64,000 nt of DNA from an uncultured Clostridia bacterium (GTDB lineage: Bacteria; Bacillota; Clostridia; Christensenellales; CAG-917). The notes beneath the pieces were generated by a model. The model had not been told where the DNA came from, did no database searches, and saw only the letters and a program-made list of their open reading frames with translations. The stretch lies in contig CAKQGN010000001.1 of the NCBI GenBank assembly GCA_934233745.1, positions 194,621-258,620 on the forward strand. Reading direction: 5' to 3'. A program made the translations under genes and the position numbers. This document shows, one piece after another, positions 1,460 to 62,066 of the stretch. The first letter of the stretch is position 1, and every line of letters begins with the position of its first letter.

Positions 1460-1503
1460 ATATAAAATCAATGCGACGTGGGCGCATACACGGAGAGAAA
1501 AAC

Positions 1504-7500: not shown

Positions 7501-10500
7501 ACAACAAATAACGCTTTGTGTATTTCACCTCAAGGCACGGCAGTTGCCACGGATAGAGCGTACAGTGGCGCGTATTTCCTTGTCACCGCAGACATCGATA
7601 TGACGGGCAATATCAGCACGGACGGCGTTTACAACTTCTTGCCGATCGGACACAGAAACGAACAAAGCCAAACCGATATGCCTTTCTCCGGCACATTTGA
7701 CGGTAATGGCAAAAAAATAAAGTTTGTCTACAATGTAAATCGAAACAATTTTTACAATAACAACAAGGCGCATTCGGATTATGTCGGGCTTTTCGGCTAT
7801 ATTGCAGGCTACAAGGTTGATGCCGAACAAAAGTATGCAACAATCAAAAACCTAAGCATTGAAAGCATGGATGGAAACGAGGTGGATGACAACGGCGGAA
7901 TCATCGGCAAGGATTATGTCGGAGGTATCGCCGGATACGCAGTTGATTCAAAACTGTACAACGTGAGTATGATGTATGGCAGCTGGGTGCGTGGCGAGAA
8001 CTATGTTGGCGGCATAGTCGGCTATGGCGAAAACACATGGTTGGAAGTAGGAAACGAACACGACAATGCGATAACATATGCGAACGTCGGCGGTATACAA
8101 TACGTCGGAGGCATCGTCGGGAAGTGGATTGTCAGTTCCGAGGAGCAAATCGGCGGCGGTAAGGACAAACAAGAATACATAACCACAACACTCGGCACAG
8201 ACGTCAACGGTACACAGTATGTAGGCGGTCTTGTAGGTTGGCTGGACACATCGACATGTACTGACTCGGTTGTTTTTGCACCGATAGTCAAAGGCAGCGA
8301 TCAAAACAAGAACGTTGTCAAAGGCACAGAATATGTCGGTGCGTTGTTCGGCGTGGTTGTCGGCAACGGATACCACCAAAGCGCAACACAGGGCAAGTAC
8401 ACGGCTATCGTCATAAGCGACCAAAAAGTAAACAATATAACGCTTCAAACAAACACAAGCGCAAAAGTTGTCGGTGGACTTGTCGGATATGCCGAGAGCG
8501 TTGGTATTTTGTTTGAAACGGATTGGAATACAAGTTCCACGACATTCACGCTTGACGATTCGACGTCGTTCTTCGGCGGTGTTGTCGGCGTGCTCGGCAA
8601 AAACTCAACGATAGAAGCTATAATAGTAACCAAAGAAGGTGACGGATCCTATCTCACAGGCTCGGAGCATACAATCTTAAACAACACTGCGCTTGGCGCA
8701 AGCGGAAAACCCATAGGCAGTTTTGTGGGCGGAATCGTGGGCTATGTGTCCTCGCAAGCAGGCACATATTGGGAAGCGAACACAACAATCTTCGGCAACG
8801 GAATATCGCTTGTCAACAGTGGTCAAATTCATGCAACCGGTTATGCCGGCGGTATTTTCGGCGCGCTCGGAGATCTTAGCACAAGCGTTGCGCAGACTTT
8901 TGAAAACGACACGAATTCCATTCTTTACAATGTTCTCACAAAAGGCGTAAGAAGCGGCAATGCCAACACCACGCTCGGCATCGCTCCGACAGTTGACAGC
9001 GCATATTTCATCGGAGCAAAAGGCAAACTTGTCAACAGCGCAAGCCTTTCGGTGACAGACGGCTATGTTGGCGGTATTGCAGGTTACAGCGGCGCAAAAG
9101 TCCGCTTTGTATTGCGCAATACGCCTCAAACGGGAGCAATCGCCACCGCAAATCTCAATGTGTACAGCGGCGGCAACGATATCTATATCAACGGAAGCTA
9201 TGCAGGCGGAATTGCAGGCTATCTCTCGTTTGGTCTTGACCACGAATTGCAATACGTCGTGGTGCAAGCCAAGTTTGCAAGCCAAGACGCAACGCGCGTT
9301 GGCGGTCTTGTGGGATATATGGGCAGCGGCAAGGTGGAAAGATGCGTTGTCACAAGCCCCGACGGCACAATCTCGGCAAACACAGACAACTATCAAGGCA
9401 CGGAATATGTGGGCGGTCTTGTGGGCGAAACCCAAAGCGCAATCATACGCAACAGCGTGTCAACAGGCTTCAATCTTGAACAAACCTCCAACACCAAGGG
9501 CGGTTTGCTCGGCTACGGCGCAAACCCGACGATTGATTCGAGCTGGACGTTCTATATCGCAAAATCCGGTGCAACATACAGCACCGTCAGCAAAAACACC
9601 TATGGCAAATATATCCTTGTGGACACAGACATTGTAACCACCGACATTGTAACCACCGACAAAAGTTCTTATCCGACATTTGCCAAACTTTGCGAATTTA
9701 CAGGCATTGCTAAAAACGGAACGGCGGGTATGCTTGAATTTGCAATCAACGTGCCGACGCAAAGACAACTCGCTTTCTACAACGCAAGTGGCAGCGATGT
9801 CGAAACGTCCAACAAAGACAGTTTCAAAGGCTTTGAAAACCGCAACAATGTGTTGACAATCAAATTGGACATGGCAAGTGGCACAAGCATGCAAATATGC
9901 GTTGTGGATATCGAATTTGTCAACGTTCCGCAACATGGCACGGACAATGACGAAGCCGCACATGCAGTTGTTGAATCTACATACAAAAAACCCTCAAACA
10001 GCACAAGATATCATGTTGATGTGACGCAAGCAAACTTCGATATTGCAAATACGAAACAAGTCACGCATATCAAAGCGAACATTTACTTTGACTATGACGG
10101 TGATGGGCACTATATTAGTATCGGTGATGGCAATGTCGAACCGAACAACCGTATTGGTGGTGAATATGATTCAGAAGAGATCATTCCCGGCAGCAGTGCG
10201 GAAAATCCGCTCACTATCAGCAGTCAAGAGGAGTGGAACGACTTTGCGTGGAGCATTTATACGGGTGCAAACGATTATGCAGGGCAATACGTGAAGTTGC
10301 TGGCAAGTAAAATTGTTATAAACACCGGTGAAAACAAAAACGGCAAGCATAAAGGCACAAAGTTCAACTACGACTACGACTTCACGTCTGTCAGCACACC
10401 AAACAAAAGCCAAGAAGATACCAAAAACGCAAATTCCAACATGGGCTACAACTTGGCTGGCAACATCTCGCAAGGCAGTTCGGAAGTTGAAAAAGTGACG

Positions 10501-13500
10501 GTTGATGGTGTACAAGGCGCAACAACACCGTCATTCAAAGGGCACTTTGACGGAAACGGAAATACGATTGAGATTACATATACGAGCGGCGGATATCACC
10601 GTATCAGCGTGTTCCCGAATGCCGCAGGCGCAACGTTCAAGCACCTCACTATAAAAGGCACAATTCAAGCGGCAAGTCAAGCTGACGGAAAAGGGAATGA
10701 AGAGAATGATAAAAAAGATATTGTTTCCAAAACAGCCGCTTATGACATTGCAGGATTTGTGGGCAAACCGTTTGGAACACTCAAATTTTACAACTGCAAA
10801 AACGAAGCAGACATCATCGGTTTGAGAAATGTTGGCGGCATCGTTGGCTACAATGCAGGCGGACAATCGATAACGCTTGAAGCATGTGTCAACACAGGCG
10901 ACATTACATCTTTACAAGGGTCATACACTTTGGGTGGAAAAAACTCGGACACATATAACTACGATGATGGTTTGGATGGGACAGGAGTTGGTGAGACAAA
11001 CGTTGGATATACATTTGGCACTGGCGGTATTATAGGTTCTTACATTGGTAATATTCAAATTGAAAGTTGTCGTAATTCAGGCAAAATAATAGGCGGCCAT
11101 AATGTGGGTGGTATTATCGGTTTGCACAATGGCAAACAAGAAAGTTTTGCAACACTTACCATAAACAACTGTGCAAACACCGGCGATATACTCGCAAATT
11201 CAGGATACTGGGGTGAAGATCAAGGGGGAGCAAAAGATAATCCTTCTAGAGGCGTAAGGCAAAGCATATTCGGTTACGCAGGCGGACTTGTCGGAAAGAC
11301 GAGCAGATACTCTTCCCTCAAAATGTTTGCATCGTACAATATGGGTACTGTAATTACATATTCGAATATTGTCGGTGGGCTTGTTGGCGCAGTTGGAGCT
11401 TTGTCGAAAACAAGCAAAAACACAGGTACGGATACTTTGTTGACAGGTTCAAAATCTGTGATTGCATACTGTTATAACAACGGTACCGTTCATTCAGGCG
11501 GTACGTATCCAAAACAAGTTAAAGAAAGACTTTCTGGTCGTGAGAACTATGGCGGAACAATTTCCGGCGGTATCGCAGGTATTGTCGGCAATATCAAGAT
11601 TTCAAATTGCTACAATACGGGAGATATAATTGCTTGGGGCGTTGTAGGCTATAGTGGTTCTTGGCAACTGCGTTCAGGTGGCATAGTTGGTCAATCTGAG
11701 CCAACAGGCGACACATATGTTGTTGAGTTTGAGACTTTGTACAATGCCGGTTCGATTATGGCAAAAGCAAAAAACACTCACGTAGGTGTAGAGTGGATTG
11801 GTATTGCTTATTATATGAATGAAAAATTGAGATACGGTGGTGCCATTTCCGGTTATTGTGATCATTCGGAAATAACAAGCCGAATCACTTCATACAATGT
11901 GTACTCAATCAAATATCCTGTAGGAACGAAGATACTAAAAAAAGACATTAACTCCGCTAATAAGTATAAGGAAAGCGATTATGCAGAAACTGACTTTCAC
12001 GAACAAAGACGAGGAGATTATCTTGCAGACGGCGGCGTGGCAGGTATTGGGGCATCGCAAGAAGGTCTTACAGTTTCGGGTACGACGTTTGACTCGTATG
12101 AACAGCTTACAGCGCGTTTGAATGCACGTGATGATGTTGTGCCAAGAGCAACAGAGTATACTGGCAACAATAAAATTAATATAATACAATCCATTGAAAC
12201 ATTGACTGAGGGTATCGATTATACTCAACCTAAAATTGACGGCAAAATGTATGATGGTTGGATATATGTTTATGGTTGCTTGCCACAGCTTGCCATGTTT
12301 GCATTGGACACTCAAAACGGCTTGAGTATGCACTCGGTTGGTTATAGAAAAGATCAATACGGAGAATACAATGCAACAGGTGAGAGTGCAGGTTCTGATC
12401 AATATCCATACATCATTAAAGACGGCATCGATCTTATGGGTATGCAAGCACTTGTCGATAACGGATTTGATTTTAACGGAAAAATTATAGAGTTTGCGAA
12501 CAGCACCAACAATCTATCAGGGGTATGTTCTGAAACAATTGTTTTCCCAACAACATCTAGCACGTCAACCAACCTCAAAGACAGTAATGCGTATAAGGCA
12601 AAAGACAGCAAAGGAAACTACCATGAGGGCAAAAGTTACCACTTGTTTGCAAAAGGTGCATTATGCAATCAAGGTTGGTCTGATGACAAAGGCAACGTCA
12701 ACTCTGTTGCCCAAGAATATGGGACTTGGATAGAAAACAACTATAGGAATCTTGGCGAAAGTAAAAATACCACATTAAATTTGCAAAACTTCATTGCTAT
12801 CGGTAGAAAAGGCAATTCGTTCAAAGGAACAATCAACGGTCAACAGGGTACAGCGGAAGCTAGTTTTGCAACAATCATCGATTCGTTGCGTGTGACAATC
12901 AAAGGGTATAAAAACACTCACGCAGGACTTTTCTCAACTATAGAAAATGCCATTGTGCAATATGTTGGAGTCGGTGGTAATAGCCAAGTTTTTTCCCATG
13001 AAAAAGTTGGCACAACAGTAGTTGCCACGGCAGGTGGCATTGTCGGTATGGTATACGGCAACTCTGTTGTTGAAAACTGTATCGTGAAAGGTTCAACGGT
13101 AGTTGGTGCATATGGGTCTAATGCGTATGCAGGTGGAATTGCAGGCATGGCTGATCCCAAGCAAGGCAATACGTACAATGCAGGTATCACCACCACTATC
13201 CGCAATTGCTCCATTTCTTCAAGCGGCAGAATCGAATCCGCAAAGAGCAACATCGGCGGTGTTCTCGGTTATGTCGGTGGTGACGCAGGAGCAAACGAAA
13301 AAGGCAATAGCGTGCGTATCGAGGGGTGCGAGGTGCAAAAGGCGGCAATTCAAGCCGCAAGCAGCGCGACAGAAAGCAGTCATATCGGCGGTGTGCTGGG
13401 ATACGGCTCGGACTATGTGGCGGCATTCATCACCGGATGCTCGGTCGGCAACGGCGCAGATACTGTCACCATAAAGGGCGAGCATAGCCTTGGTGGCATC

Positions 13501-16500
13501 GCAGGCGGTATGTCCAATGCAAAAGGCGGTTATATCGACTCCTGCACGGTCGGAGCAAACACCACAATCGAACGAATAAATCAAGGCGGTGGCACAGTTT
13601 CTGAAAACCCCAAGCACGGCACTGCAATCGGCGGTCTTGTCGGTTTCACCGAGGACTCAACAGACACTACAAGCCCGCTCACCACGACGTTTAGCGGAAC
13701 ATCGGCTTTCAACGGCACGATAACCGTTTCGGTTGAGGCATCCTATCAATCATCAACATTGGACGCGAAGATAAGCTGTATCGGAGGTATCGTGGGCGAT
13801 ATGGGTTCGGGCGCAAACTTCGCGTCGGGATCGAATGTCACCGTGGACGGAACAATCAATATCACGCTTGCGGCTGCAAACGTCGGCGGCGTTGCGGGCC
13901 GTACAAACACTGCAACGTTTATCGGCAATTTTGTTGTCAAACCGAATATGCAAACCGATAAAGCCGAAAACGTCGGCGGTTTCATCGGCAAGAACGTTGG
14001 CACGGTGTACATACTTGCCGACACCACTGAGCGCATCGTGAACGACAAGCTCAACGGCACGGATATCACCATTGGCGGAACGATTCGAGGCACGAGCGAG
14101 GTGGGCGGCTTCATCGGCGTCAACAACTCGGGCAGCTCGCTCAATATCGGCTCAAACGTCGCAAACGCAAAGCCGTATAGATCGGGTACGCTGTCCATTA
14201 CAATTGAAAACGGGACGATCACCGGTGGCGATAATGTCGGCGGTATCGTCGGCAAAAACGAGGGTGCGGACGGCGGCGCAAGCTATGCGAGCATAGATAT
14301 CGTCAAAGGTACTATAACTCAACGAGGCACGATCCAAGGCGCAAACTATGTGGGAGGCATCATCGGACTCAACGACGGCTTGCTCACTACGGGCGGTGGC
14401 GAGGCGGATACGTCTATCGGCGGAACTACGCTTGATGAAAATCAAATCGGGCTTATCAAAAACCTCTCGATCACCAACAACGGCAACGTCACGGGTTCGG
14501 GCAACTATGTCGGCGGCGTGGTCGGCAAGCTCGATTCGCCTGCCGAAGATTCGGGCAAGGGTGCAATCGCAGGTACGTTTACAAACAGCGGCACGGTTGT
14601 GGGCAACAACTTTGTGGGCGGCTCGCTCGGTTTTGTCGGCAAAAACGTCACAATCACTGCAAAGAATAATGTTGCAACATTGTTTGTCAATGACGGCGAA
14701 GTCAATGCGACAGGCTACTTTGTGGGCGGTTCTATCGGCGCACTTGTCGGAAAGATTCTAGGCGAAAACTCGTCCGTTGCGGTCAAGTTTGAAAACAAAA
14801 AGAAAGTCAATGCGACAGGCTTTGTGGGCGGATCTATCGGCGTGCTGGCAGGTCCCGTTTCCTATGCGCAATTTGTCAATAGCTCGGACGGCCTCGAAAT
14901 CGCGGCGGTTAACTCGGTCGGCGGCTCGGTGGGTTACATCGGTGTGCCCTCGTTGCTTAGCTATGAGTTGATCGGCTTCACTGCGCATCAGATCGACATA
15001 AATAACACTCACTTCGAGGCTTCGGGAACTCTCAAGGCAAATCCGAGCCAAGACGCTATCAATGCGGCAAAGGAAGATAAAGAGGATAACGGTTGGGGCG
15101 GCGTCGGCGGCGCAATCGGAGTCATGGGCGCGGCTATCAATTCGTGGACAGACAACACATACTACGCCAACGGCAACGTCAGTGCAAACGTCATAGAAAA
15201 CGGTATAGAAACAGGCATATACAACGTCGGCGGCATCGTCGGACTTATCAATGCAGGCAACATCACGATAAGCAACATGCTCGCCTATCGCACAACAGTA
15301 ACCGGCGGTAAAAACGTCGGCGGCATCGTCGGTGCGACCACGGGCGCAAAAACCGTCATCAATTCCGCATACGCAATAGAAGGCACGTTCAGCGGCACTG
15401 AAAACGTGGGCGGCATCATCGGTCTTGCCAAAGACGATACCGACGCAAGCACTTCGTACTGGGTTAAAGGCTACGCAAACAGCGATATAGCCACGTATGA
15501 CGTAAAAGATTTGTCCAAACTCGGCTTCACAACCGGCAAAGCAACAACCGGCTGGTTCTTCCTGTATGCAAACGATGCAACCGGCGCAAACGGACTGGGA
15601 ACAATCAACACTTCACACTCCACAAATTCCGATTTGCAATACTGGAAACGCATTGCCGACGCATACACCGCAAGCGAGCGACAAACGAAAATAAAAGACG
15701 AAACCGGCGTAGAATATACATTAGCAACGATTCCGCTTAAATCGGATATCGTCAAGGACAAAGATATCAATGGCACAGATACCAAATCTCCGCAAAAATC
15801 CACGCTCTACGCAACCGCCACGGCGGCAGAAGTGACAGAAAAAGGCTATTATATGTATACAGCGACGTCGAATAACGATGTTAAGCCGTCTGTCATATAC
15901 GATAACGGAGTGTATTATATTAGCGTAAAAACAAACGTTATCAATGCGGAGGACGAAAAAGTCCAGGCGCAAAATGTTGCAGTGTTCTACCGTTCGGTTT
16001 CTTCAAGTAAAGAAGCATTGATCTACAATGGTTATTTGCGTAATGCCATTATTGGTTTGGACGGAGTTTACTTGTATGAAAACCCAATCGGCGACAATGA
16101 AACTCCGACAATTAATGGCTATAAAGGACAATACATATTTACCGCTACAACAACTATCAAAAACGCAGACGGTTCGACAAGCGAAGTGAACGAGGCTCAA
16201 TCGGATCCGAACACCTATTCTTCCGTCATTAAGATTTACTATGTCGACGACAACGGCACGGCACGTCTTGTCGGCGGCAATACCGAATTGGCATGGAAGA
16301 TCACCGAGAGAGAATTGGCGGTTGCATTTGAACATACTACGAATAGAACGTATGGAACAGGAACCGAAGACAACACGACCGATATGACGGTTACAATAGA
16401 CAACATTGCACCAAAAAGAGGTGTTACTGTCCCGATTAGAATAGTTGTTTCGTATGGGGCACAAGAGGATAGTCGTGTTATATTCACATGGGATGGTACA

Positions 16501-19500
16501 AAATTTAATGGCGCTGACGAAAATATAAAACTTACGTCGCTTCCAATGACGCAAAGCGGAACTTTGAGCGATAAGGATAAAGAATCGACAAGTGAAACCA
16601 TTGAAGATGAGGCCACATATCAACTTGTCGTAAAATTGTTTTTCAAACAAGCCAAATCGTATACGATTACCGTTTTGGATAGCTCACAAAAAGCTCGCTA
16701 CACATTCAAGAAAAACGGAGGAAGCGCGAGTGCTGAAGTCAGCGATGAATTTACTGTGCTTCCTGCCGAGTTGAGGCTGGTGAGTTCTTACGCTACATCC
16801 AGCGCATATGACGGAACGTACAAAGGCAAAGAATGGTTGGTAACAGGATTCAAGTATAATGATGGTGTTCTTCAATTTGCAGAGTTTTTACCTTCGTTTA
16901 ATATAAAATATAAAAACGGAGATGTGACAACAAAAGCAATGACTGCCGATAATATGACAACAGGAGTGGACTTTAACGGGCCAAGGGTTTCAGTTGCAGG
17001 ACCATCCAACGGAAATCTGACCATTTCACTTGTCAATGCCATCAACAAAGGTGAGTACTATCTTACTTTTGGGAAAATCGCAGCGGGCAACTATACGCTT
17101 AAAATCGAAGATTATTCATTTAGCATCGTAGAAATACAAATTGAAATTTCATGCGATGATAATGGAAAAAGCAAAATATATGACGGAAACGCCAAGGATG
17201 TAAAATTCACATTCAAAGCGAGCGCACCCGCCGGTGTTACGTTTGACGGTATAAGTGAGTATAAAACCTTTATCAGCAAGTTCTTTAAGATTAACAATCA
17301 AACTATTGAAACAAACAGTTTGAAACTTGTTGATAACAAAACAATCACATTGACATTGCAAACGGAGAAAGATGCAGCAACATATAAATTTGTTTTCGGA
17401 AAGGGTGAGAAATACGACGACCACATTAAAAACTGTGCTCTTAAACCAGCAACACTTCCGACATATACATACACTATAACCAAACGTTCGATCACATTGA
17501 GCACAACGCCGACGAGCACCAAAACTTACATTTACAACACCGAGCATCAAGGGTTGAGTCAAGTCAAATTGAATGGTGAGAGTGGCGATGTGGGCATTGT
17601 CTCAGGCGACACCGTCATGGTTAAGGTGAGCGTTCCGGGTGGGGATCCCTCGTCGAAGACTCTGTCGTTTGACAATCAAACGCTTGAGGTAACGGCAGGC
17701 ATTTCGACTATCGACGCAAACCAATATGTCGCATCTTTCGATTTGGATGACGCATCGAGCAAAAAGAACTACACGTTGAGTGCAACAAACGTGTCTTGGA
17801 AGATAGACAAATACAAAATAATGATTGGTGAGTTTGAGATTGGGGCTGAAAAAACATACAACGCACAAGCAGAAGTGCCAAAAATCAATGTCACCAACAG
17901 CGAAGTATCGGTTAGCGGAAACACGTTTACATATGGTACAGATACCTTTACTCTTGAGTATGCTGTTTCTTACAATAACCAAACCTATGCGAGCAACAAT
18001 CTTGTCAATGCAGGCACCTACAAGATTAAAATAGGCACCTCAAATGGAAAGATACATGCCAAGCATAGCGACGGGAATGATGCGTCAAACAACTATGAGT
18101 TTGGAAATAGCTCAACAGAACATCAATACGTGATCAATCCTTGCGAGATAAAAATCGGTTGGGAAAAGAAAACATTTGTGTATAATGCAAGTAATTGGAA
18201 ACTAAATGTTGCAAGTATCGAAATCAACAACAAGACCAAGACGGTTACAAACAATAGAGTTCAAACCGGTTTGGGCAACGATACTTTGACGTTCAGTCGT
18301 GGTGGCGGCGGAACAGACGTGGGAAGTTATACAACAAATGTAACGTCGCATAGTGTCAGTGTCAGTGTAGAACCAAACCACGGCGTAAGGCCTATTGCAG
18401 GCAACTATAAGATTGTATCTGGTGCCACAAGCGACAAGTTTTCCATCACGCCGTCCAAACTGAAGATTTTCTATGCAGGCGGTACGACAAGCAAAGTTTA
18501 TGATGCGGGATTTGGTATATCAGGCAAGCCGTTCGTGTTTAATACTCAATCCCAAAATGGCGGCGCACACGGCACTTCGGAGTTGTTTGATATTAGCTAT
18601 GTGTACAAAGACAAAAATGTCGGCAACGACAAGGAAGTTGTGTTTACCTATGTGTTGAAGAACGGAAATGCGAACTACGAATACGTTGGTACGGGAACGG
18701 AAAGTCAAAACAAAGGACAAATCACGCCGGCACATATCAAGGTTGCGCTCGACAAGTTGCGTAGTGGAAAAGCGACAAGGACGTTTACCAACGAACCTTA
18801 TTATGGTGGAAAAGACGGCGCAAGCGGCGGCAAAAACGACGGCAAAAGCACAGTGTATCGTTCGGGTGAAGGTTTCCGCATAAGCGGCGTGTTCGGCAAC
18901 GACGACATCAAAGTTGTTGCAAAATACGCCGAGGCAGGCGACGATAGAGTGATGTTTGACAAATATGTCAACGACATTGTGAAAAATACAGACGAAACGT
19001 TTGCCAAGGCGGCGGCAGGCACGCATTTGAAGATGCTTGTGTTTGAAATGACGGGTGGTGACGCAACAAACTACACGTTCAACGTATACGATACATCTGA
19101 CAAAGCATACAGCAAAAACAATGGCGATAGCCAAACGCCGGTGAATGTTTATGACAAGGATGATGAGAAAAACAACAAAGATAAACTGTCCCAAATCAAA
19201 ATCGAAATCACCGTCAAAACGTACAAAGTTGAGTATAAAAACGCCGCTCAAAGTTATGCCAATGCAGACAATACTTACAACACAAATTGGGAAAGAGTTG
19301 GAGTATCCAACAACCCGCCAGGAGTTACAGTAACCGTTTCCAACGGCTGGATGTATGCCGACGGACAAGACCATGGTGATGATGAACAAGCCGAAAAGAA
19401 AGTCTACAAAGCGTACACAACCATTAGAGGCTCGCAAAACAGTGTCTTGTTGGGTGCAAAGATAAGCGGTATCGATGGAATGGAACTCAACTATAAGATG

Positions 19501-21093
19501 GTCAATCAGCCCATTCTTACCATCGGATACTTTGTCGTAGACAACAACGACGTGTTTGAAATCGGTTCGGCATCGAGTTTAATGATTGCATCCTACTATT
19601 GGTGGGTTGCGCAAAACGGTCAAAACCCCGACTTCAACCTGCCGCTCGTTGCAACTTCAACATGGCATAAGATTGTCAGCAACGATGATTATATGACAAA
19701 ACCGTTTGAGAAACCGAGCGATGCACCCAACGATGTTGATATGACGGGTTGGGATTGGGATATGTATTTTGCTTGGTTTGAACAACAATATAATGTCAAG
19801 ATTTTCCTCAATGAAACAGGAATTTCAAACGAGGACGGCACGTGGGGCTATTATACAACCGGCGAAGAATCGCAACAAACACAATATAAAAAGTATAGAA
19901 TGGTGCGTGATTTCAGCGGCAAATTGTCAGAGTCCGATATTGCCATACTTGAGGCGTTCTTCCCGAAAGAAAAAGGGTGGGGCGTTGGAAAAACGTATCT
20001 TGACAACTTCCTCAATACTTCAGTCGGAAGTGTGTTGACGGCAGTCGGAAGTGTGTTTAGATGGTATAATGGTAGTGTAGGACAGTTTGAGTTTGACGGC
20101 AACGGATATGTCATAGAGTATCTCAACATTATGGGCTACGACAAAGAGAATGTCGGCTTGTTTGACATCATCGGCGCAAACGGAAGTGTCAAAAATCTGC
20201 ATTTGAGAAATATCACAATCAATGCAAATCAAGGCAACGTCGGCGGTATTGCCGGAAGTATTGCCGCGGCTGAGGGTGAGGGCGATGCAACAAATGTCAC
20301 CAACGTGTCCTTCCACGGCAAGATTACCGCAACGGGCGGCACGGTCGGCGGCTTGTTCGGCACAAGCGCAAGAGCAATCAACGGCGCAATCGTCCTTGGC
20401 GAGATAAGCGCAAGCGGCGCAAACGTCGGTGGCGTTGTCGGCACTGCAAAAGCAGACTTAACCAAAGTTGTGTCAATGATGCAAATCACCGCAAGCGGCG
20501 GCACGGTTGGAGCGTTTACAAGCACTCAAAACCCAACAATCTCAGATTCTTTCCATATGCATAATGCAGTGTGGAAGAGCGGCACGGGCTTCGTAAACGT
20601 TGAAGGCAAAAACGTCGGCTACAATGATTTGATGAGCGGTTCAAACTCGCTTTATGCAAACGCCGCCTCCGATTCAGGCACATACGACGTTATCAACGAA
20701 ACGTTTGCCGACAGCGGTCAAAACGTCAATCCGCGCCAAAGCAAACGCTTGAGAGATATGGTTTCCGTGTATCTATTGATGTATTCTTTGAAAGTCAATG
20801 GCGACAAGTACACCATAAGCGCGTCAAGTTGGCTTGTCGGTTCGGCGGATGGCACAGACGCGAAACCGATTGCGATTGCCAACAAACAAAACGTATCGCT
20901 TTTGCGCGAGCTACGCTTTGCGGCGTTTGTGCTAAAAGCCAACGTGAGCATTGACATTGCAAGCACGTTTGGCGGCTCGTTCTATGGCAGCGTGACAAGT
21001 GAGAACGGCAAAGACTATAAGATAACTTGCAACAAGCAGATGTTCGAGGTATACGCAACCACACCTCCGGCGTGGCTTGAAGTAAAACCTTAA
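1504..21093 (+). CDS. Giant (about 6,529 aa) N-terminally anchored surface protein with GLUG-motif beta-helix repeats alternating with MBG/Ig-like repeats
   Basis: One uninterrupted ORF (track 1471..21093). The ATG at 1504 has a GGAGAG RBS. The N-terminus has a basic stretch plus one hydrophobic helix (LTAGALLLAITFVLVFAGTLSGAFG). Dozens of G-G-[ILV]-[VA]-G units occur about every 20-30 aa (VGGIVG, VGGLVG, AGGIAG), matching the GLUG motif and a parallel beta-helix. Six modules each open with a G-x-x-x-P-[YF]-x-I type segment at about nt 2326, 4486, 7396, 10186, 12388 and 19552. Between them, especially 15450-19540, are 90-110-aa repeats with junctions of the form (A/G)NY..I.P..I.I...K.Y(D/N)(G/A), which are MBG-like. 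No LPXTG, SLH or other C-terminal anchor is visible. Confidence 0.9.
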   Translation: MRNSRTKTQTKLRNYIKLTAGALLLAITFVLVFAGTLSGAFGIENELQQNGIIENNVASATGTTKTVTYNASDTTFTATPNKKWKNDLTKQSIVTSYPSKHQQKWKKLFEDFVGDTTYDGCHGYYDRDTYTENATVALNKTEITQFLSSGIGESDDLYYTVSATATIKMGAWQDGSATITQKVSAWVSDNATHNSNTQGELFSHQQSKKEEAWKHILSLESNIFKTKPTTSTLYFGVHYEHKNNASGTAFGANTYDFMLVESFEITITKYSGYSGGDGTPASPYILAKRADFDDLSVNVASGSTYSGKYFIVQPDTTIEGQNATTIAMGDTYFTPIGNSTTKFAGTLLGNGCTINGLVTSGQHSGLFGYVNNARIDSLTVNVSNDSDSTSVGGLVGVVNGTTTITNCNVTGSVKGTHQIGGFVGFAQDCVLTISNGTNSATITTTSQSSNDKGRTSGGGIVGYVNANATVTINDVTNTGEVKTTSGNANSGLGGIVGFANGGTNINNCHNTASITGRAGLGGIVGYTANGSIVGCRNDGNITSSKPYNLGAGEASYSGGIAGYCYADVAKCYNSGTVKTTSDWGNSNIVGGIAAYLGSGRNVKYCYNGGWIEGSDYVGGIVGRRDGTVSYSYQAGKIKGLYNKTSTIGHITGNDTSSKISTCWTLPGASNLTTVTNTFNHNGYTVSSEANVAMKPAFGNAVLESWEEITDTGATSDTFSEITGIDQFVFYPNNNEHKIENNQYLFVYATDANAVALVPNHIDSGVSVITDTTTASVAKTVPFVSRFYFNASSDKNLVASISPIDAPLTSTQTVYNGSGQKVTTDVVGADVQEKSYYFTSGNDNALAKNKVIDAGEYDIVTEVTMKVGENTYVVVGRQVHETKWTIKTRPISFWNKIYYYGETPTSAPVPQSMSGDKGLLNGHTFICTHADELTYDFMYGAIPNAQKEVTINMTGEIRDAAGNDVTYNYDFQNGTFTISMREGNFGVKGTTDIVNNPWGSQGNPFVIKTAQHLVNLSKIVNGETPTNADTSQIVNSIFDNTTYTHVVSNNTIRYQNCYFVIVNDLDMNGSGFAPIGKDATYFFEGNISGVKSIEDTLQQNRFISNLTVNLASTDNVGLFGYVLKKGTEKPYIKHIVLNNSCSFVGKSNVGSIVGWAQDAVIQNCINNATVEGKGENAGGIVGKNFGTETSNCENHGTVKGVKNVGGIAGTLDWGVISNVQNSATVEASGENCGGIVGYMISYSTLKNVTNNAQVNGGNKTGGALGYYEKKATYSVQPIYGLTNNNSVEGLSNVGGIIGCVAGDLVFDGNNESQKCTMSGGSVKGTFNVGGLVGGVEDGSTVTLTNFTNNAKVIGGYVVGGLVGLLRGSIKNSVNNADITSEYNKAGTPSGLSIGAYVGGLVGVAYGAISHCYNSGNISASGDNSDFLGGIVGYTNANVAYCTSLENSIISGSNQVGGIVGKASGNNVKIEYCYFGGKINGLWNDNRAKLDFICGEIIDGLVSNSWKLPNAQNGDTGNRTYTNAGNALTIATGMTFKPYFVQEGSEHDTEWEQIVSKNIVGFSVSGNVPTNSYFNSDNGNDTAYVKPDKTNGFAANSTSGNVTAWYGADFGSDVRCSIVEIQVDTTPDEYNGEKQGLTREDVYMPSANNGVYEVQFAYKGNKYGDVIPEDVDMYNTTVTVKIDEKVVGVRTGVQYEITKKKVTITNIWTWKYVNGSNADFYKFEYNKDIQGMLSITVDGVLENSHYTLTQTENKAAVGKYSSSVVISDRDYEVEIVSKYCTIQNNNANLETDNAKYGIKTTQTNANTSNSQTTYTYNWEIVPFDLAADFNKNNVWFGGTKNLIVGNQGIANVEGDTTKSFYPLQVGKKGTGVQQVLVYAQHNYAASSFVVYVKYNNGNVFPLTRDTEYTVGTLENNVFGTFNVNVVSQAKPVEDTNVTARGTGNFSGDITKYYTAMFSDFGGNVTGANWGSAGNPYVISKPEHLLRLSQIVNGGTAWNSIITTNNALCISPQGTAVATDRAYSGAYFLVTADIDMTGNISTDGVYNFLPIGHRNEQSQTDMPFSGTFDGNGKKIKFVYNVNRNNFYNNNKAHSDYVGLFGYIAGYKVDAEQKYATIKNLSIESMDGNEVDDNGGIIGKDYVGGIAGYAVDSKLYNVSMMYGSWVRGENYVGGIVGYGENTWLEVGNEHDNAITYANVGGIQYVGGIVGKWIVSSEEQIGGGKDKQEYITTTLGTDVNGTQYVGGLVGWLDTSTCTDSVVFAPIVKGSDQNKNVVKGTEYVGALFGVVVGNGYHQSATQGKYTAIVISDQKVNNITLQTNTSAKVVGGLVGYAESVGILFETDWNTSSTTFTLDDSTSFFGGVVGVLGKNSTIEAIIVTKEGDGSYLTGSEHTILNNTALGASGKPIGSFVGGIVGYVSSQAGTYWEANTTIFGNGISLVNSGQIHATGYAGGIFGALGDLSTSVAQTFENDTNSILYNVLTKGVRSGNANTTLGIAPTVDSAYFIGAKGKLVNSASLSVTDGYVGGIAGYSGAKVRFVLRNTPQTGAIATANLNVYSGGNDIYINGSYAGGIAGYLSFGLDHELQYVVVQAKFASQDATRVGGLVGYMGSGKVERCVVTSPDGTISANTDNYQGTEYVGGLVGETQSAIIRNSVSTGFNLEQTSNTKGGLLGYGANPTIDSSWTFYIAKSGATYSTVSKNTYGKYILVDTDIVTTDIVTTDKSSYPTFAKLCEFTGIAKNGTAGMLEFAINVPTQRQLAFYNASGSDVETSNKDSFKGFENRNNVLTIKLDMASGTSMQICVVDIEFVNVPQHGTDNDEAAHAVVESTYKKPSNSTRYHVDVTQANFDIANTKQVTHIKANIYFDYDGDGHYISIGDGNVEPNNRIGGEYDSEEIIPGSSAENPLTISSQEEWNDFAWSIYTGANDYAGQYVKLLASKIVINTGENKNGKHKGTKFNYDYDFTSVSTPNKSQEDTKNANSNMGYNLAGNISQGSSEVEKVTVDGVQGATTPSFKGHFDGNGNTIEITYTSGGYHRISVFPNAAGATFKHLTIKGTIQAASQADGKGNEENDKKDIVSKTAAYDIAGFVGKPFGTLKFYNCKNEADIIGLRNVGGIVGYNAGGQSITLEACVNTGDITSLQGSYTLGGKNSDTYNYDDGLDGTGVGETNVGYTFGTGGIIGSYIGNIQIESCRNSGKIIGGHNVGGIIGLHNGKQESFATLTINNCANTGDILANSGYWGEDQGGAKDNPSRGVRQSIFGYAGGLVGKTSRYSSLKMFASYNMGTVITYSNIVGGLVGAVGALSKTSKNTGTDTLLTGSKSVIAYCYNNGTVHSGGTYPKQVKERLSGRENYGGTISGGIAGIVGNIKISNCYNTGDIIAWGVVGYSGSWQLRSGGIVGQSEPTGDTYVVEFETLYNAGSIMAKAKNTHVGVEWIGIAYYMNEKLRYGGAISGYCDHSEITSRITSYNVYSIKYPVGTKILKKDINSANKYKESDYAETDFHEQRRGDYLADGGVAGIGASQEGLTVSGTTFDSYEQLTARLNARDDVVPRATEYTGNNKINIIQSIETLTEGIDYTQPKIDGKMYDGWIYVYGCLPQLAMFALDTQNGLSMHSVGYRKDQYGEYNATGESAGSDQYPYIIKDGIDLMGMQALVDNGFDFNGKIIEFANSTNNLSGVCSETIVFPTTSSTSTNLKDSNAYKAKDSKGNYHEGKSYHLFAKGALCNQGWSDDKGNVNSVAQEYGTWIENNYRNLGESKNTTLNLQNFIAIGRKGNSFKGTINGQQGTAEASFATIIDSLRVTIKGYKNTHAGLFSTIENAIVQYVGVGGNSQVFSHEKVGTTVVATAGGIVGMVYGNSVVENCIVKGSTVVGAYGSNAYAGGIAGMADPKQGNTYNAGITTTIRNCSISSSGRIESAKSNIGGVLGYVGGDAGANEKGNSVRIEGCEVQKAAIQAASSATESSHIGGVLGYGSDYVAAFITGCSVGNGADTVTIKGEHSLGGIAGGMSNAKGGYIDSCTVGANTTIERINQGGGTVSENPKHGTAIGGLVGFTEDSTDTTSPLTTTFSGTSAFNGTITVSVEASYQSSTLDAKISCIGGIVGDMGSGANFASGSNVTVDGTINITLAAANVGGVAGRTNTATFIGNFVVKPNMQTDKAENVGGFIGKNVGTVYILADTTERIVNDKLNGTDITIGGTIRGTSEVGGFIGVNNSGSSLNIGSNVANAKPYRSGTLSITIENGTITGGDNVGGIVGKNEGADGGASYASIDIVKGTITQRGTIQGANYVGGIIGLNDGLLTTGGGEADTSIGGTTLDENQIGLIKNLSITNNGNVTGSGNYVGGVVGKLDSPAEDSGKGAIAGTFTNSGTVVGNNFVGGSLGFVGKNVTITAKNNVATLFVNDGEVNATGYFVGGSIGALVGKILGENSSVAVKFENKKKVNATGFVGGSIGVLAGPVSYAQFVNSSDGLEIAAVNSVGGSVGYIGVPSLLSYELIGFTAHQIDINNTHFEASGTLKANPSQDAINAAKEDKEDNGWGGVGGAIGVMGAAINSWTDNTYYANGNVSANVIENGIETGIYNVGGIVGLINAGNITISNMLAYRTTVTGGKNVGGIVGATTGAKTVINSAYAIEGTFSGTENVGGIIGLAKDDTDASTSYWVKGYANSDIATYDVKDLSKLGFTTGKATTGWFFLYANDATGANGLGTINTSHSTNSDLQYWKRIADAYTASERQTKIKDETGVEYTLATIPLKSDIVKDKDINGTDTKSPQKSTLYATATAAEVTEKGYYMYTATSNNDVKPSVIYDNGVYYISVKTNVINAEDEKVQAQNVAVFYRSVSSSKEALIYNGYLRNAIIGLDGVYLYENPIGDNETPTINGYKGQYIFTATTTIKNADGSTSEVNEAQSDPNTYSSVIKIYYVDDNGTARLVGGNTELAWKITERELAVAFEHTTNRTYGTGTEDNTTDMTVTIDNIAPKRGVTVPIRIVVSYGAQEDSRVIFTWDGTKFNGADENIKLTSLPMTQSGTLSDKDKESTSETIEDEATYQLVVKLFFKQAKSYTITVLDSSQKARYTFKKNGGSASAEVSDEFTVLPAELRLVSSYATSSAYDGTYKGKEWLVTGFKYNDGVLQFAEFLPSFNIKYKNGDVTTKAMTADNMTTGVDFNGPRVSVAGPSNGNLTISLVNAINKGEYYLTFGKIAAGNYTLKIEDYSFSIVEIQIEISCDDNGKSKIYDGNAKDVKFTFKASAPAGVTFDGISEYKTFISKFFKINNQTIETNSLKLVDNKTITLTLQTEKDAATYKFVFGKGEKYDDHIKNCALKPATLPTYTYTITKRSITLSTTPTSTKTYIYNTEHQGLSQVKLNGESGDVGIVSGDTVMVKVSVPGGDPSSKTLSFDNQTLEVTAGISTIDANQYVASFDLDDASSKKNYTLSATNVSWKIDKYKIMIGEFEIGAEKTYNAQAEVPKINVTNSEVSVSGNTFTYGTDTFTLEYAVSYNNQTYASNNLVNAGTYKIKIGTSNGKIHAKHSDGNDASNNYEFGNSSTEHQYVINPCEIKIGWEKKTFVYNASNWKLNVASIEINNKTKTVTNNRVQTGLGNDTLTFSRGGGGTDVGSYTTNVTSHSVSVSVEPNHGVRPIAGNYKIVSGATSDKFSITPSKLKIFYAGGTTSKVYDAGFGISGKPFVFNTQSQNGGAHGTSELFDISYVYKDKNVGNDKEVVFTYVLKNGNANYEYVGTGTESQNKGQITPAHIKVALDKLRSGKATRTFTNEPYYGGKDGASGGKNDGKSTVYRSGEGFRISGVFGNDDIKVVAKYAEAGDDRVMFDKYVNDIVKNTDETFAKAAAGTHLKMLVFEMTGGDATNYTFNVYDTSDKAYSKNNGDSQTPVNVYDKDDEKNNKDKLSQIKIEITVKTYKVEYKNAAQSYANADNTYNTNWERVGVSNNPPGVTVTVSNGWMYADGQDHGDDEQAEKKVYKAYTTIRGSQNSVLLGAKISGIDGMELNYKMVNQPILTIGYFVVDNNDVFEIGSASSLMIASYYWWVAQNGQNPDFNLPLVATSTWHKIVSNDDYMTKPFEKPSDAPNDVDMTGWDWDMYFAWFEQQYNVKIFLNETGISNEDGTWGYYTTGEESQQTQYKKYRMVRDFSGKLSESDIAILEAFFPKEKGWGVGKTYLDNFLNTSVGSVLTAVGSVFRWYNGSVGQFEFDGNGYVIEYLNIMGYDKENVGLFDIIGANGSVKNLHLRNITINANQGNVGGIAGSIAAAEGEGDATNVTNVSFHGKITATGGTVGGLFGTSARAINGAIVLGEISASGANVGGVVGTAKADLTKVVSMMQITASGGTVGAFTSTQNPTISDSFHMHNAVWKSGTGFVNVEGKNVGYNDLMSGSNSLYANAASDSGTYDVINETFADSGQNVNPRQSKRLRDMVSVYLLMYSLKVNGDKYTISASSWLVGSADGTDAKPIAIANKQNVSLLRELRFAAFVLKANVSIDIASTFGGSFYGSVTSENGKDYKITCNKQMFEVYATTPPAWLEVKP
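9628..9660 (+). repeat. In-frame 15-bp perfect tandem duplication (GACATTGTAACCACC x2.2) inside the giant gene
   Basis: gacattgtaaccacc gacattgtaaccacc gac encodes DIVTT-DIVTT-D. Confidence 0.95.
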
Positions 21094-21098
21094 TATTC

Positions 21099-21122
21099 GG
21101 CGCAGACGGCATGCCGTCTGCG
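21099..21122. terminator. Perfect 24-bp palindrome GCGCAGACGGCA/TGCCGTCTGCGC just after the giant-gene stop; possible attenuator or terminator
   Basis: The 12-bp arms are fully complementary, 6 nt after the stop codon. No clean U-tract follows (AAAATGCGTTTTC), so termination efficiency is uncertain. Confidence 0.3.
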
Positions 21123-21370
21123 CAAAATGCGTTTTCAAGCGAAATCGACATTCTAACCGTGCAAAATGCGCCTTTTGTCGTTTTTGATACAAAAATAAGG
21201 CATATTGCGCGTTGTGTCGGTGAAATCGATATTCTAACCGCACTGATTGCGGGTTTTGTGTCTGCCGCAAGAAAATACGAGCGTAAACCCCAATAAAAAC
21301 GCTTTATAAATTGTAATTTATATATAGTATATACAAAGTGCAACGCATATGCACAAGGAAGCAAGAGCAA

Positions 21371-22414
21371 ATGAGTCAGCCAAGCAAAACCAAAACTTTC
21401 AAAATCATCATGTCAATCATGATTCCGCTTTTGATTGTCGTGACCACCGTTGTTATGGTGGGCGCGTCTTTTGCGTGGTTCTCAAACGCCGACAAGGTCA
21501 CTATCACCGAAATCACGATGTCCACTGCCGAGTCTTACAAAATAAAATTTGAATTGCAAACAAACAGTCAACTTTGGGACAATATGGAGTATGTCGGGCA
21601 AACCGCATTTTGCGATATAGATCCCAACGCCGGCAAACTTATGACCAAAGCTATAGCAGGCGAAAACACCGTTGACATCAGCAATCGTCCCTATTATTTT
21701 ATCAATACCGTTGCGCTTGACACGACAGGCAAAACGTTTGATATGAATATGGCGTTCGACACCGCAAAGATTGTCACCTACAAATATGAACTTGTTGACA
21801 ATGCGCAAGGAGAAAAAACGTGGCAAAAGGCGGTTGACGAAGACGGTAAGCCTATTGTTTTGAAACAAAAAACTTATTCTGCAACCGAGGCGGAAGACAT
21901 CAAATATGCGTTTACGTGGTTTTTCAAGGAGCACGTAAACGAGCAGGGCATTGCAAGCACCAACCACACAGTCGGCGACGACAAGATTGACAGATTGAAA
22001 CAACTCAATCCAACCAAAGATGATGTATGGTACACTCCGTACGGAAAACTTGAGTTTGCCGAAACAAACGAAACCGTCAAAAACGTTTACGTTTCAAAAG
22101 TCAATGGAAAAGATATCCCTAATGATTACAGTATAAAAGATCGTGAAAAAAGTGATATCACCTACTTTAATACAAACAAATTGTACGATTTCTGCATAGT
22201 TTTTGCGCCCGAAAAGCTGTTTTGGATGCAATACTTCAAAGCCGATGTGGACAAGTATACAGCGGAAAATGTTTACAGTTCAGACGAATTAAAAAAGATT
22301 TTCGGCAATCTAACCAATCAGATGTTCTATTCGAGCAGGGACTATTCCGGCTCGACGTTTGAGTTTTCAGCCGTCATCAACGTCACGGGTATGAGAGAGG
22401 AGGGACAAGGCTAA
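21371..22414 (+). CDS. Exported or anchored protein with a SipW/TasA-type signal motif (hypothetical, possibly TasA/camelysin-like)
   Basis: Track ORF 21338..22414 uses a GTG start. The ATG at 21371 is preceded by AAGGAAG. The N-terminus is K-rich, then IIMSIMIPLLIVVTTVVMVGASFAWFSNADKV. This resembles the SipW-cognate signal class (G-T-x-A-[YFW]-F-[ST]-D; compare TasA GGGTWAAFND). Confidence 0.6.
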   Translation: MSQPSKTKTFKIIMSIMIPLLIVVTTVVMVGASFAWFSNADKVTITEITMSTAESYKIKFELQTNSQLWDNMEYVGQTAFCDIDPNAGKLMTKAIAGENTVDISNRPYYFINTVALDTTGKTFDMNMAFDTAKIVTYKYELVDNAQGEKTWQKAVDEDGKPIVLKQKTYSATEAEDIKYAFTWFFKEHVNEQGIASTNHTVGDDKIDRLKQLNPTKDDVWYTPYGKLEFAETNETVKNVYVSKVNGKDIPNDYSIKDREKSDITYFNTNKLYDFCIVFAPEKLFWMQYFKADVDKYTAENVYSSDELKKIFGNLTNQMFYSSRDYSGSTFEFSAVINVTGMREEGQG

Positions 22415-23301
22415 TGAACAAAACCAAGCGCACCCTCATCGTATCGTCCGTTGTTATGGCACTCATTTTGGTTGTCACCGCAGTCAGTGTGACGGCGGCG
22501 TGGTTCAGCAACTTTGCAGGCAGCAACCAAGGCGGATTCACCATCGATTCGGCACTCTTGCAAGAGAGCGTCAACATCACGATTGACAGCAGTGCGTCGG
22601 ACTATGGCAGTGCGTTGTGGCCTGCCGTCGCAACTCCCGGCTATCTCGAAAAAGGCGCGCTCGCGCCGTATGGAACGGATTTGAAAGAAAAAAAGAACGA
22701 AACTTATGCCGTGACAGGTGTTCAAAAAGCGGCAAAATGCGCGGTGATATATTTCCCCATTCGCTTTGAAGGCTCGCCCGATTTGAATGAACAAAACGTT
22801 GCAATCGACGGAAGAAGGTCGTTGTATTTGGATGTGAAACACGCCTATCTCGGCACAAAACCAGATGACGGCAATGGAAGCAACACCCAAAACGGCGCAA
22901 TAACTGAAGATGCGACCAAAGACTATTTGTCCTGGTTCAACGTTGAAATGAAACTTGTTAAAGTCACAAAAACCGTCAACGGAGAAACGGTTACGACCAC
23001 CGTTGAAGATTTGCCGTCAACTCAAACACCGCAAGGTGAGGCAGGCGATGTGTACTACAATCAGCCAAACACCGCAAATGATAAATATCCGGGGTACAAG
23101 CTCTATATGCTCCTCAAACCGGGCGTTGAATACTATGTGCAAGCCACAATCTATTTCAACAAACTCGACGAGGAATGCGATGAAAAGTTGCTTTATCTTG
23201 ACGCATTTCAAGAGGCTCAAAAGGCAATATCGTTCAAGTTTGAACTTCACAGCACGTTGCCTGCAGGCACAAGCATAAGAAACAATAATATGACGCCATG
23301 A
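22414..23301 (+). CDS. Exported or anchored protein with a SipW/TasA-type signal motif (hypothetical)
   Basis: The start overlaps the previous stop (TAATG), with a GGAGGG RBS. The N-terminus is MNKTKRTLIVSSVVMALILVVTAVSVTAAWFSNFAG. It also contains ALWPAVATPGY, resembling the PGD-type strand motif of TasA-like proteins. Confidence 0.6.
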   Translation: MNKTKRTLIVSSVVMALILVVTAVSVTAAWFSNFAGSNQGGFTIDSALLQESVNITIDSSASDYGSALWPAVATPGYLEKGALAPYGTDLKEKKNETYAVTGVQKAAKCAVIYFPIRFEGSPDLNEQNVAIDGRRSLYLDVKHAYLGTKPDDGNGSNTQNGAITEDATKDYLSWFNVEMKLVKVTKTVNGETVTTTVEDLPSTQTPQGEAGDVYYNQPNTANDKYPGYKLYMLLKPGVEYYVQATIYFNKLDEECDEKLLYLDAFQEAQKAISFKFELHSTLPAGTSIRNNNMTP

Positions 23302-23924
23302 TTACAAGCCGTAAAAACAAAATCGCGATTGTTGTCGCAATCATAGTGCTTTTTGTCATCGCCGTTTCGACGATGGGAGTTTCCTATGCGGTTTGGACGT
23401 CGCCCGACGGCACAATCGGCGGTGGACAGTCAACCGCGTCACCATCCGTCACCCCCGACAATTCATATGTGTGGGCAAAATATTTCAAGGGCAACGTAAT
23501 AACCGTTGACAAACAGGAATATGCGGAGCTTACAACTTTCTACACGGACGATGCAGGCTTAAACCTCTCCGACGTTTTCATTCCCGACAAAATCACGATT
23601 GAAGGCAAGGATTATCAAGTCTATCGCATCACCAACGGCATATTTGCGGACGCAACGCTCAAAAATTTGCCTGTTATGGTGCATATACCATCAAGCGTGC
23701 GAGAAATTGACGACGCGGCATTTGCAGGACTTGAAAATCTCGAAACCGTGTATTTTGCAAACGAAAACGTCTGCACTCTCGGCGAGTTTGCCTTTGCAGG
23801 CTGCTCGAACCTTAAAAACATTTACAACGTTAAAGGCGGCACTGTAACAGCAAAAGACACCTCTTTCATCGGCACACCAATAAAGCTCAATGACGATGGC
23901 ACAATCCCGTTTTCAACGAATTAA
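23298..23924 (+). CDS. Small N-terminally anchored BspA-type leucine-rich-repeat protein
   Basis: The start overlaps the previous stop (ATGA). The N-terminus IAIVVAIIVLFVIAVSTMGVSYAVWTSPDG has the same TM plus A-x-W motif as the two upstream genes. The C-terminal half, IPSSVREIDDAAFAGLENLETVYFANENVCTLGEFAFAGCSNLKNIYNV, fits the LRR_5 (BspA) pattern. Confidence 0.65.
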   Translation: MITSRKNKIAIVVAIIVLFVIAVSTMGVSYAVWTSPDGTIGGGQSTASPSVTPDNSYVWAKYFKGNVITVDKQEYAELTTFYTDDAGLNLSDVFIPDKITIEGKDYQVYRITNGIFADATLKNLPVMVHIPSSVREIDDAAFAGLENLETVYFANENVCTLGEFAFAGCSNLKNIYNVKGGTVTAKDTSFIGTPIKLNDDGTIPFSTN

Positions 23925-23945: not shown

Positions 23946-23976
23946 GAACATATCGCAACGATATGTTCTTTTTTTG
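23946..23976 (+). terminator. Rho-independent terminator of the three-gene operon
   Basis: Stem-loop GAACATATCG-CAA-CGATATGTTC followed by TTTTTTT. Confidence 0.75.
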
Positions 23977-59118: not shown

Positions 59119-59138
59119 TCTGAAAGGAAATTCGCATT

Positions 59139-62057: not shown

Positions 62058-62066
62058 GGAAAGCTT

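Follow-up and report, generated by a model that had tools for sequence, protein, structure and literature searches.

The giant gene and the three genes behind it

Metagenomes are rich in giant adhesins of uncultured gut Clostridia, and the one considered here carries no recognisable wall anchor. Its gene lies in a 64,000-nt stretch of DNA from an uncultured Clostridia bacterium of the lineage Christensenellales (contig CAKQGN010000001.1, positions 194,621 to 258,620 of the forward strand), called the window below, to whose first letter all coordinates refer. Behind the giant gene, on the same strand, stand three short genes whose products are here named P1, P2 and P3. A preliminary description of the window had proposed that these products carry N-terminal signal-anchor motifs of the TasA/SipW type and serve as a dedicated processing, fibre or docking set for the giant protein. 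The triplet proves to be attached to one particular family of giant adhesins, and its products, unrelated elsewhere, have an N-terminal module in common. The features of the locus are as follows.

1471..21093, plus strand: gene for the giant surface protein with GLUG repeats, 6540 residues (open reading frame (ORF) list and Pfam)
1471..1683, plus strand: leader of the giant, residues 1-71, with a basic stretch, a transmembrane helix and 'GTLSGAFGIENELQQNGIIENNVASA'
18691..21090, plus strand: conserved C-terminal module of the giant, about 800 residues (conservation across 28 species)
21095..21128, plus strand: palindromic hairpin directly 3' of the giant's stop codon, with 17-nt arms that are 88% complementary
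21371..22414, plus strand: P1, 347 residues, a new family; beta-rich domain behind the N-terminal module
21371..21526, plus strand: putative export module of P1, residues 1-52; n-region, helix, G31-A-S33-F-A35 / W36-F-S-N and a strand-like segment
22414..23301, plus strand: P2, 295 residues, a new family; the same N-terminal module, followed by a beta-rich domain that bears the motif 'IYFNKVDEEC'
23298..23924, plus strand: P3, 208 residues; the same module, an invariant 'WAKYF' and a BspA-type leucine-rich repeat (LRR) domain
23616..23882, plus strand: LRR_5 domain of P3 (PF13306), residues 107-195
23946..23975, plus strand: intrinsic terminator behind P3, with a 10-bp stem, a 3-nt loop and a run of seven T

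The three genes are translationally coupled. P1 and P2 meet at a TAATG, contained in GGCTAATGAAC, with a GAGGAGG Shine-Dalgarno sequence inside the end of P1, and P2 and P3 overlap at an ATGA, contained in GCCATGATT. The hairpin of the closing terminator (23946-23968) has a minimum free energy of -15.3 kcal/mol and a z-score of -3.46 relative to shuffled sequences. Coordinates, both overlaps and the terminator are all as the preliminary description had given them. The start of P1 is placed at the ATG at 21371; an alternative GTG at 21338 finds no backing in the N-termini of orthologues.

Giant gene and P1 are separated by a spacer of 277 nt in the window, as against about 45-120 nt in distant relatives. 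In the window a 38-nt direct repeat occurs in this spacer twice, at 21141-21178 and at 21222-21259, with 79% identity between the copies. The hairpin that opens the spacer is possibly a partial terminator or an attenuator. Beyond the P3 terminator lie two tRNA genes on the opposite strand; apart from these, no structured RNA was found in the spacer or in the 3' flank.

The sole Pfam domain of the giant protein is Glug (PF07581, E = 1.5e-23), and its single hydrophobic segment spans residues 29-54. The protein has no LPXTG-like motif, no C-terminal hydrophobic segment and no Pfam anchoring or wall-binding domain. Two parts of it are well conserved. The leader of about 71 residues is 90-100% conserved in 16 database proteins, which are unrelated to each other right past '...NVASA', though the word-based search behind this comparison returned close relatives and fragments only and no distant giant N-termini. 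This pattern suggests that a distal domain, hypervariable between strains, follows a conserved leader, to which recombination or cassette replacement may have joined it. At the other end, the C-terminal stretch of about 800 residues shows a column identity of 0.35-0.58, compared with 0.02-0.3 upstream of it (last 1500 residues, 28 species). The idea that P1-P3 might be copies of domains of the giant was rejected, there being no homology.

The shared N-terminal module

Hydrophobicity profiles bear out the earlier statement that each product begins with a basic stretch and a single transmembrane helix. P1, P2 and P3 each have one hydrophobic segment, preceded by Lys/Arg, with a 19-residue Kyte-Doolittle maximum of 2.75-2.92 and a helix of 22-24 residues. 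These segments are N-terminal only, hence none of the three has the transmembrane part of a C-terminal sorting signal.

The shared small-residue/aromatic motif reported at the end of the helix is likewise present in all three products. In the window it reads GASFA-WFSN in P1, SVTAA-WFSN in P2 and GVSYA-VWTS in P3, which gives the common pattern [G/S]-x-[S/T]-x-A followed by [W/V/I]-[F/W]-[S/T]-[N/D/S]. The elements stand in register: a small residue or helix breaker at -5, Ser/Thr at -3 and Ala at -1, then an aromatic pair, a polar [S/T]-[N/D] and, past the motif, a conserved strand-prone stretch. TasA reads GGGTWA|AFND in the same register. Across 35 species-level genomes the orthologues keep the motif, even where identity falls to 28-30%, and each family has its own version. 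In the P1 family it is [G/S]-x-S-F-A-W-F-[S/T]-[N/D/Q], with SFAWF invariant in an alignment of 38 sequences; in the P2 family it is [S/G]-x-[T/S]-A-A-W-F-[S/T/G]-[N/D], with AAWF invariant; and in the P3 family it is G-x-[S/T]-[Y/A]-A-[I/V]-W-[T/I]-[S/D/E], with A31 and W33 invariant. It was found in no other ORF of the window or of the relatives' flanks, and two other secreted proteins in the window carry signals that differ from those of the triplet.

Profile-profile alignment with hhalign shows how far the common module extends. P1 aligns with P2 at E = 4.8e-5, confined to the first 60 or so residues, and the N-terminus of P3 aligns with P2 at E = 6.6e-4 and with P1 at E = 1.2e-3. Outside the module the three proteins are unrelated to one another; the possibility that P1 and P2 are paralogues beyond the first 60 or so residues was rejected, the alignment ending there. 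Conservation peaks in the same part of the proteins, at residues 21-40 in P1 (0.67 against a mean of 0.41) and at residues 1-20 in P2 (0.74 against 0.40). Synonymous sites are saturated in the N-termini of P1 and P2, so the constraint acts at the protein level. The 20 most conserved residues of P2 correspond to 22414-22473 (MNKTKRTLIVSSVVMALILV), that is, the n-region and the first half of the helix, a stretch that looks like a signal peptide, for which such constraint is unusual.

A type IV pilin leader would place another construction on these N-termini. That reading, with its class III signal peptide, was rejected: no G/FxxxE precedes the helix in P1-P3, and Pfam scans found neither a pilus ATPase nor a prepilin peptidase in the window. 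A weak PDB match to an entry named 'Flagellin' (E = 0.85) was restricted to the N-terminal 75 or so residues.

The signal class that the motif recalls is represented by TIGR04088, the NCBIfam model for the 'SipW-dependent-type signal peptide', which has 34 positions and a cut-off of 19 bits. Scans of full-length proteins against NCBIfam gave nothing above threshold. Among 65-residue N-terminal fragments TIGR04088 was the top-ranked NCBIfam family, matching 20 of 79, and it was matched by eight of the 38 P1 family members. Scores for individual orthologues (L numbers denote the related loci) were as follows.

P1 orthologue, L023: 22.0 bits, above the cut-off
P1 orthologue, L004: 16.9 bits
P1 orthologue, L025: 13.7 bits
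P3 orthologue, L037: 12.3 bits

The P3 of the window gave no match. Judged by these profile scores, the resemblance appears to be real at the family level for P1 and marginal for P3; P2 resembles the class because of the motif that it has in common with P1. The likeness to SipW-cognate signals, originally extended to all four proteins, has support for the P1 family, with one orthologue above the cut-off, and is weak for P3, while P2 and the giant do not match the model. The sequence GTLSGA-FGIENE, which had been placed beside the motif, does occur in the giant and is conserved among close relatives, but it has only a generic S-x-A/aromatic site in common with the triplet.

No enzyme suited to such a signal is encoded nearby. 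Signal peptidase I box motifs are absent from ORFs of at least 90 residues in the window and in loci L001-L040, Pfam detects no Peptidase_S24/S26 among the window ORFs, and no SipW was found in the window or within 6-10 kb of the locus in any relative. Pfam scans of the other large ORFs of the window found no sortase. As first stated, then, the window contains no SipW-type signal peptidase, sortase or pilus ATPase, and the flanks of the locus in relatives contain none either.

Families, folds and linkage to one giant

Neither P1 nor P2 belongs to a Pfam or NCBIfam family. An exhaustive HMMER profile search among 1.84 billion representative proteins returned 79 clusters of P1 at 50% identity, all of which bear the AWF motif except one low-complexity false match; it recovered only the clade's own family and no useful remote homologue. 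The PDB yielded no relevant relative of P1 or P2 by phmmer or by profile search, and neither protein matched Peptidase_M73 (PF12389), the Pfam family of TasA and camelysin.

Predicted structures point the same way. The AlphaFold2 (AF2) model of P1 has a mean confidence (pLDDT) of 76.6, with core blocks mostly at 84-97; it is beta-rich, its strands are long, and it leaves residues 1-65 unstructured. Compared with the PDB by Foldseek, with significance set at E <= 0.001, it gave no significant match, the best reaching E = 0.03, with template modelling (TM) scores of about 0.1, and TasA and AbpA were absent among the matches listed. The P2 model is weak (pLDDT 57.5) and also gave no significant match, the best being CorA (4bz4) with E = 0.005 and a TM-score of 0.21-0.26. 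Overall the best matches were assorted beta-sandwich proteins, MSCRAMM adhesins and this CorA among them, with TM-scores of at most 0.27. In both monomer models the conserved segments behind the motif are unstructured. The comparison of P1 and P2 with TasA and camelysin by profile and structure, which the preliminary description had proposed, therefore turned up no similarity: a relationship is rejected for P1 and, the model being weak, unsupported for P2 (Pfam, NCBIfam, PDB sequence and profile searches, AF2 with Foldseek).

P3 is the only one of the three with a known domain. Its match to LRR_5 (E = 3.6e-10; 40.3 bits, cut-off 27.7) confirms it as a BspA-type LRR protein, and the domain is also flagged in P3 orthologues. 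The WAKYF that sits between the motif and the repeats is invariant in the family.

Two members of the P1 family depart from the usual layout. A distant one, at L041:912-2324 (P0315), has 470 residues and a C-terminal Flg_new (Listeria-Bacteroides repeat) extension, so the P1 module can be joined to adhesin-type repeats. The orthologue at L035:9992-10705, on the chromosome of a metagenome-assembled genome (MAG) from long reads (CP091723.1), has an ORF of 237 codons where others have about 340, probably through a frameshift or a sequencing error.

The locus was gathered from 35 species-level genomes and further assemblies. The order giant-P1-P2-P3 is found without exception among the 35 genome loci wherever the contig is long enough, down to 28-33% identity, and also in a still more distant fragment. 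The reverse search started from the giant: metagenome contigs were searched with a profile of its C-terminal 700 residues, and 12 loci matched over the full length, 11 of them with downstream DNA. P1 is present in all 11, and P2 and P3 wherever the contig continues. Among 67 loci that match only the generic GLUG-repeat stretch, there is no relative of P1, P2 or P3. With 11 of 11 on one side and 0 of 67 on the other, the triplet belongs to one giant family and not to GLUG proteins at large. The question whether giant GLUG genes are recurrently trailed by this triplet is answered with yes for the former and no for the latter. The original proposal had been set beforehand to fall if TasA-like folds, a SipW homologue in the genome and conserved synteny were lacking together; because the synteny of triplet and giant is conserved, it is not refuted on those terms.

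The family was found in uncultured gut Clostridia, many of them labelled Christensenella-like, from human, mouse, rabbit and ruminant samples. Several cassette contigs (L007, L014, L016, L021, L024 and L028) were deposited under other names, such as Phascolarctobacterium succinatutens, Anaeroplasmataceae, Bacteroides sp. and Butyrivibrio crossotus, which probably reflects binning or labelling errors in those MAGs.

Proposed accessory partners of the giant and the alternatives

The best explanation of these findings, to which we give about an even chance, sees P1-P3 as exported partners that assist or tether the giant adhesin, with an N-terminal module of the TasA/TapA class. Translational coupling would let the three be made in fixed proportion. 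They would be exported by Sec and cut after the invariant Ala by a type I signal peptidase whose gene lies elsewhere, be it SipW-like or the housekeeping enzyme; the -5/-3/-1 pattern and the TIGR04088 match favour such a cleavage. The cut proteins would remain at the cell surface in association with the giant, which has neither a sortase signal nor a wall-binding domain, and there tether it or aid its assembly, P3 by means of its LRR domain, P1 and P2 by means of the conserved segments at their N-termini. That the proteins are exported, cut, kept at the surface and in contact with the giant is inferred in each case. Tethering or assembly is the most economical hypothesis for the partners' task, given an anchorless giant with a conserved leader and C-terminal module, an LRR domain in P3, and conserved but unstructured segments in P1 and P2. 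Of the roles first suggested, docking may hold, processing is without basis because none of P1-P3 has a protease-like domain, and the fibre reading is weakened by the want of any TasA/camelysin relationship in sequence or predicted fold.

Several observations weigh against this explanation. The P1 of the window scores 12.7 bits against TIGR04088, short of the cut-off (residues 21-52 on model positions 3-33), and neither P2 nor the giant matches the model at all. No linked signal peptidase was found in the window or in some 47 related loci. This last point is not disqualifying, because a generic peptidase is reported to process the archaeal TasA-like proteins AbpA and AbpB, near whose genes no dedicated one is encoded (PMC9245690). 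In P1 and P2 conservation is highest in the n- and h-regions, which is more typical of retained transmembrane anchors than of signal peptides, and the helices of all three proteins are long and very hydrophobic. Finally, neighbouring gene order is broadly conserved too, with genes for GDPD, GH3 and a hexapeptide transferase downstream in relatives, so part of the synteny is shared ancestry.

A more specific form of the tethering hypothesis, which we consider quite doubtful, makes P1-P3 a sortase-independent anchoring set. By strand complementation, their N-terminal strands and the P3 LRR domain would grip the C-terminal module or the leader of the giant without a covalent bond. The giant, otherwise anchorless, would then stay attached to the cell, with its distal N-terminal domain free to vary between strains, and the strand-donor principle of TapA would have been reused for tethering a giant adhesin rather than for fibre nucleation.

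The conservation of the n- and h-regions raises the alternative that the signals are never cut. P1-P3 would then be bitopic proteins (N-in, C-out) in which G-x-x-x-A and the W/F residues serve helix packing and an interfacial aromatic belt, and together with the transmembrane leader of the giant they would form an intramembrane docking platform. Such a platform would account for helices of 22-24 residues with Kyte-Doolittle maxima of 2.75-2.92, for selection at the protein level on just these regions of P1 and P2, and for a giant leader that is near-invariant while the sequence behind it is hypervariable. The G at -5 and the A at -1 can be read as a small-xxx-small motif, and there are sub-threshold matches to the transmembrane regions of bitopic proteins such as FliL, FtsQ, YmgF and WzzB. 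That said, Ser/Thr at -3 and Ala at -1 behind a helix breaker make a canonical type I signal peptidase site, and the TIGR04088 match spans both that site and the first residues of the mature protein. The signal of TasA, too, has an h-region of similar length. On balance uncleaved anchors seem rather unlikely to us, though they deserve serious attention.

It is improbable, in our estimate, that P1-P3 are ordinary secreted proteins, such as independent minor adhesins, co-inherited with the giant without a functional tie and marked by a lineage-specific flavour of Sec signal. The lack of homology to any domain of the giant would fit, as would the synteny of the flanking housekeeping genes in relatives; the family is also restricted to one clade, so the linkage could partly reflect shared descent. 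Against this, the linkage persists where identity has dropped to 28-33% and is exclusive from either side, the three genes are translationally coupled, and the motif is missing from other ORFs of the window and flanks, the two other secreted proteins of the window included.

A TasA-like fibre, in which P1 and/or P2 would be cut by SipW and polymerise by donor-strand exchange so as to carry or dock the giant, is very unlikely: the SipW-type likeness of the N-terminal signal and the conserved, strand-prone segment behind the motif, unstructured in monomer models, do recall the N-terminal strands through which TasA and BsaA fibres assemble (PMC9674648, PMC11580942), but Peptidase_M73 and TasA are matched in neither Pfam, NCBIfam nor PDB profile searches, Foldseek is silent for the confident P1 core as for the weak P2 model (no TasA or AbpA among the matches listed), no sipW is adjacent as it is in tapA-sipW-tasA and sipW-bsaABC, and the cores of P1 and P2 are not homologous.

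As proposed accessory partners of a giant, P1-P3 invite comparison with several known systems. The tapA-sipW-tasA operon of Bacillus subtilis also encodes co-operonic exported beta-rich proteins, with small residues at -3 and -1, an aromatic-[S/T/N]-[D/N] sequence and a conserved N-terminal strand region, and TapA, its accessory or anchor protein, is like P1-P3 in not having the TasA fold (PMC9245690). The triplet differs in lacking both a TasA-like subunit and an adjacent sipW, and its partner is a 6,540-residue GLUG adhesin. In Clostridium perfringens, sipW-bsaA-bsaB-bsaC is again a clostridial multi-gene operon whose products are thought to be processed by SipW, and each set includes one protein-interaction domain, VWA in BsaC and LRR in P3 (PMC11580942). 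There, however, the polymerising proteins BsaA and BsaB are distantly homologous to TasA, sipW is part of the operon, and no giant adhesin is involved. The archaeal bundling pili of AbpA and AbpB match the triplet in having no dedicated peptidase gene nearby, a generic signal peptidase being presumed (PMC9245690); AbpA has the TasA-like jelly-roll fold and AbpB is TapA-like, and the searches with P1 and P2 turned up neither fold.

Closer to the adhesins themselves, P3 bears the PF13306 domain of BspA-type LRR surface proteins above the Pfam threshold, but it is very short, with about three repeats fused to the triplet module and WAKYF. Giant adhesins of Gram-positive bacteria that are anchored by sortase through LPXTG are likewise huge, repetitive surface proteins with a variable distal and a conserved proximal part. 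The giant of the window has no LPXTG and the window no sortase; three dedicated small partner genes stand behind it instead.

What is already known is the signal class and the existence of co-operonic accessory proteins, as in tapA-sipW-tasA and sipW-bsaABC (PMC11580942). What is new is threefold: three protein families confined to one clade, the invariant and exclusive attachment of the triplet to one giant adhesin family, and the presence of neither a TasA-like subunit nor a linked SipW. A search of the literature on GLUG adhesins in Clostridia and on the signal class outside Bacillus found no description of the arrangement, in keeping with the initial impression that the combination had not been characterised. 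The triplet offers three small, expressible proteins for probing how a giant is tethered or assembled, and the arrangement would widen the reach of TasA/SipW-type N-terminal signals beyond biofilm-fibre systems. For annotation, the gain is three new protein families and a gene-order signature that is diagnostic of the clade.

Two further groups of genes in the window may be recorded. Upstream of the giant gene and divergent from it, on the minus strand, lie the gene for a metal-sensing repressor of the csoR type (966-1307) and then copA, cut short by the start of the window, of whose copper P-type ATPase the N-terminus, with an HMA domain, is encoded here (1-1307 for the pair). At the far end (56582-64000), an ABC ATPase gene, a 569-residue ORF without a Pfam match and two paralogous Big_2-domain secreted proteins lie together. 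The Big_2 proteins, at 59139-62057 and from 62067 to the end of the window, have nearly identical N-terminal signals (MKKVMIGILILIPII), of a type that differs from that of the triplet.

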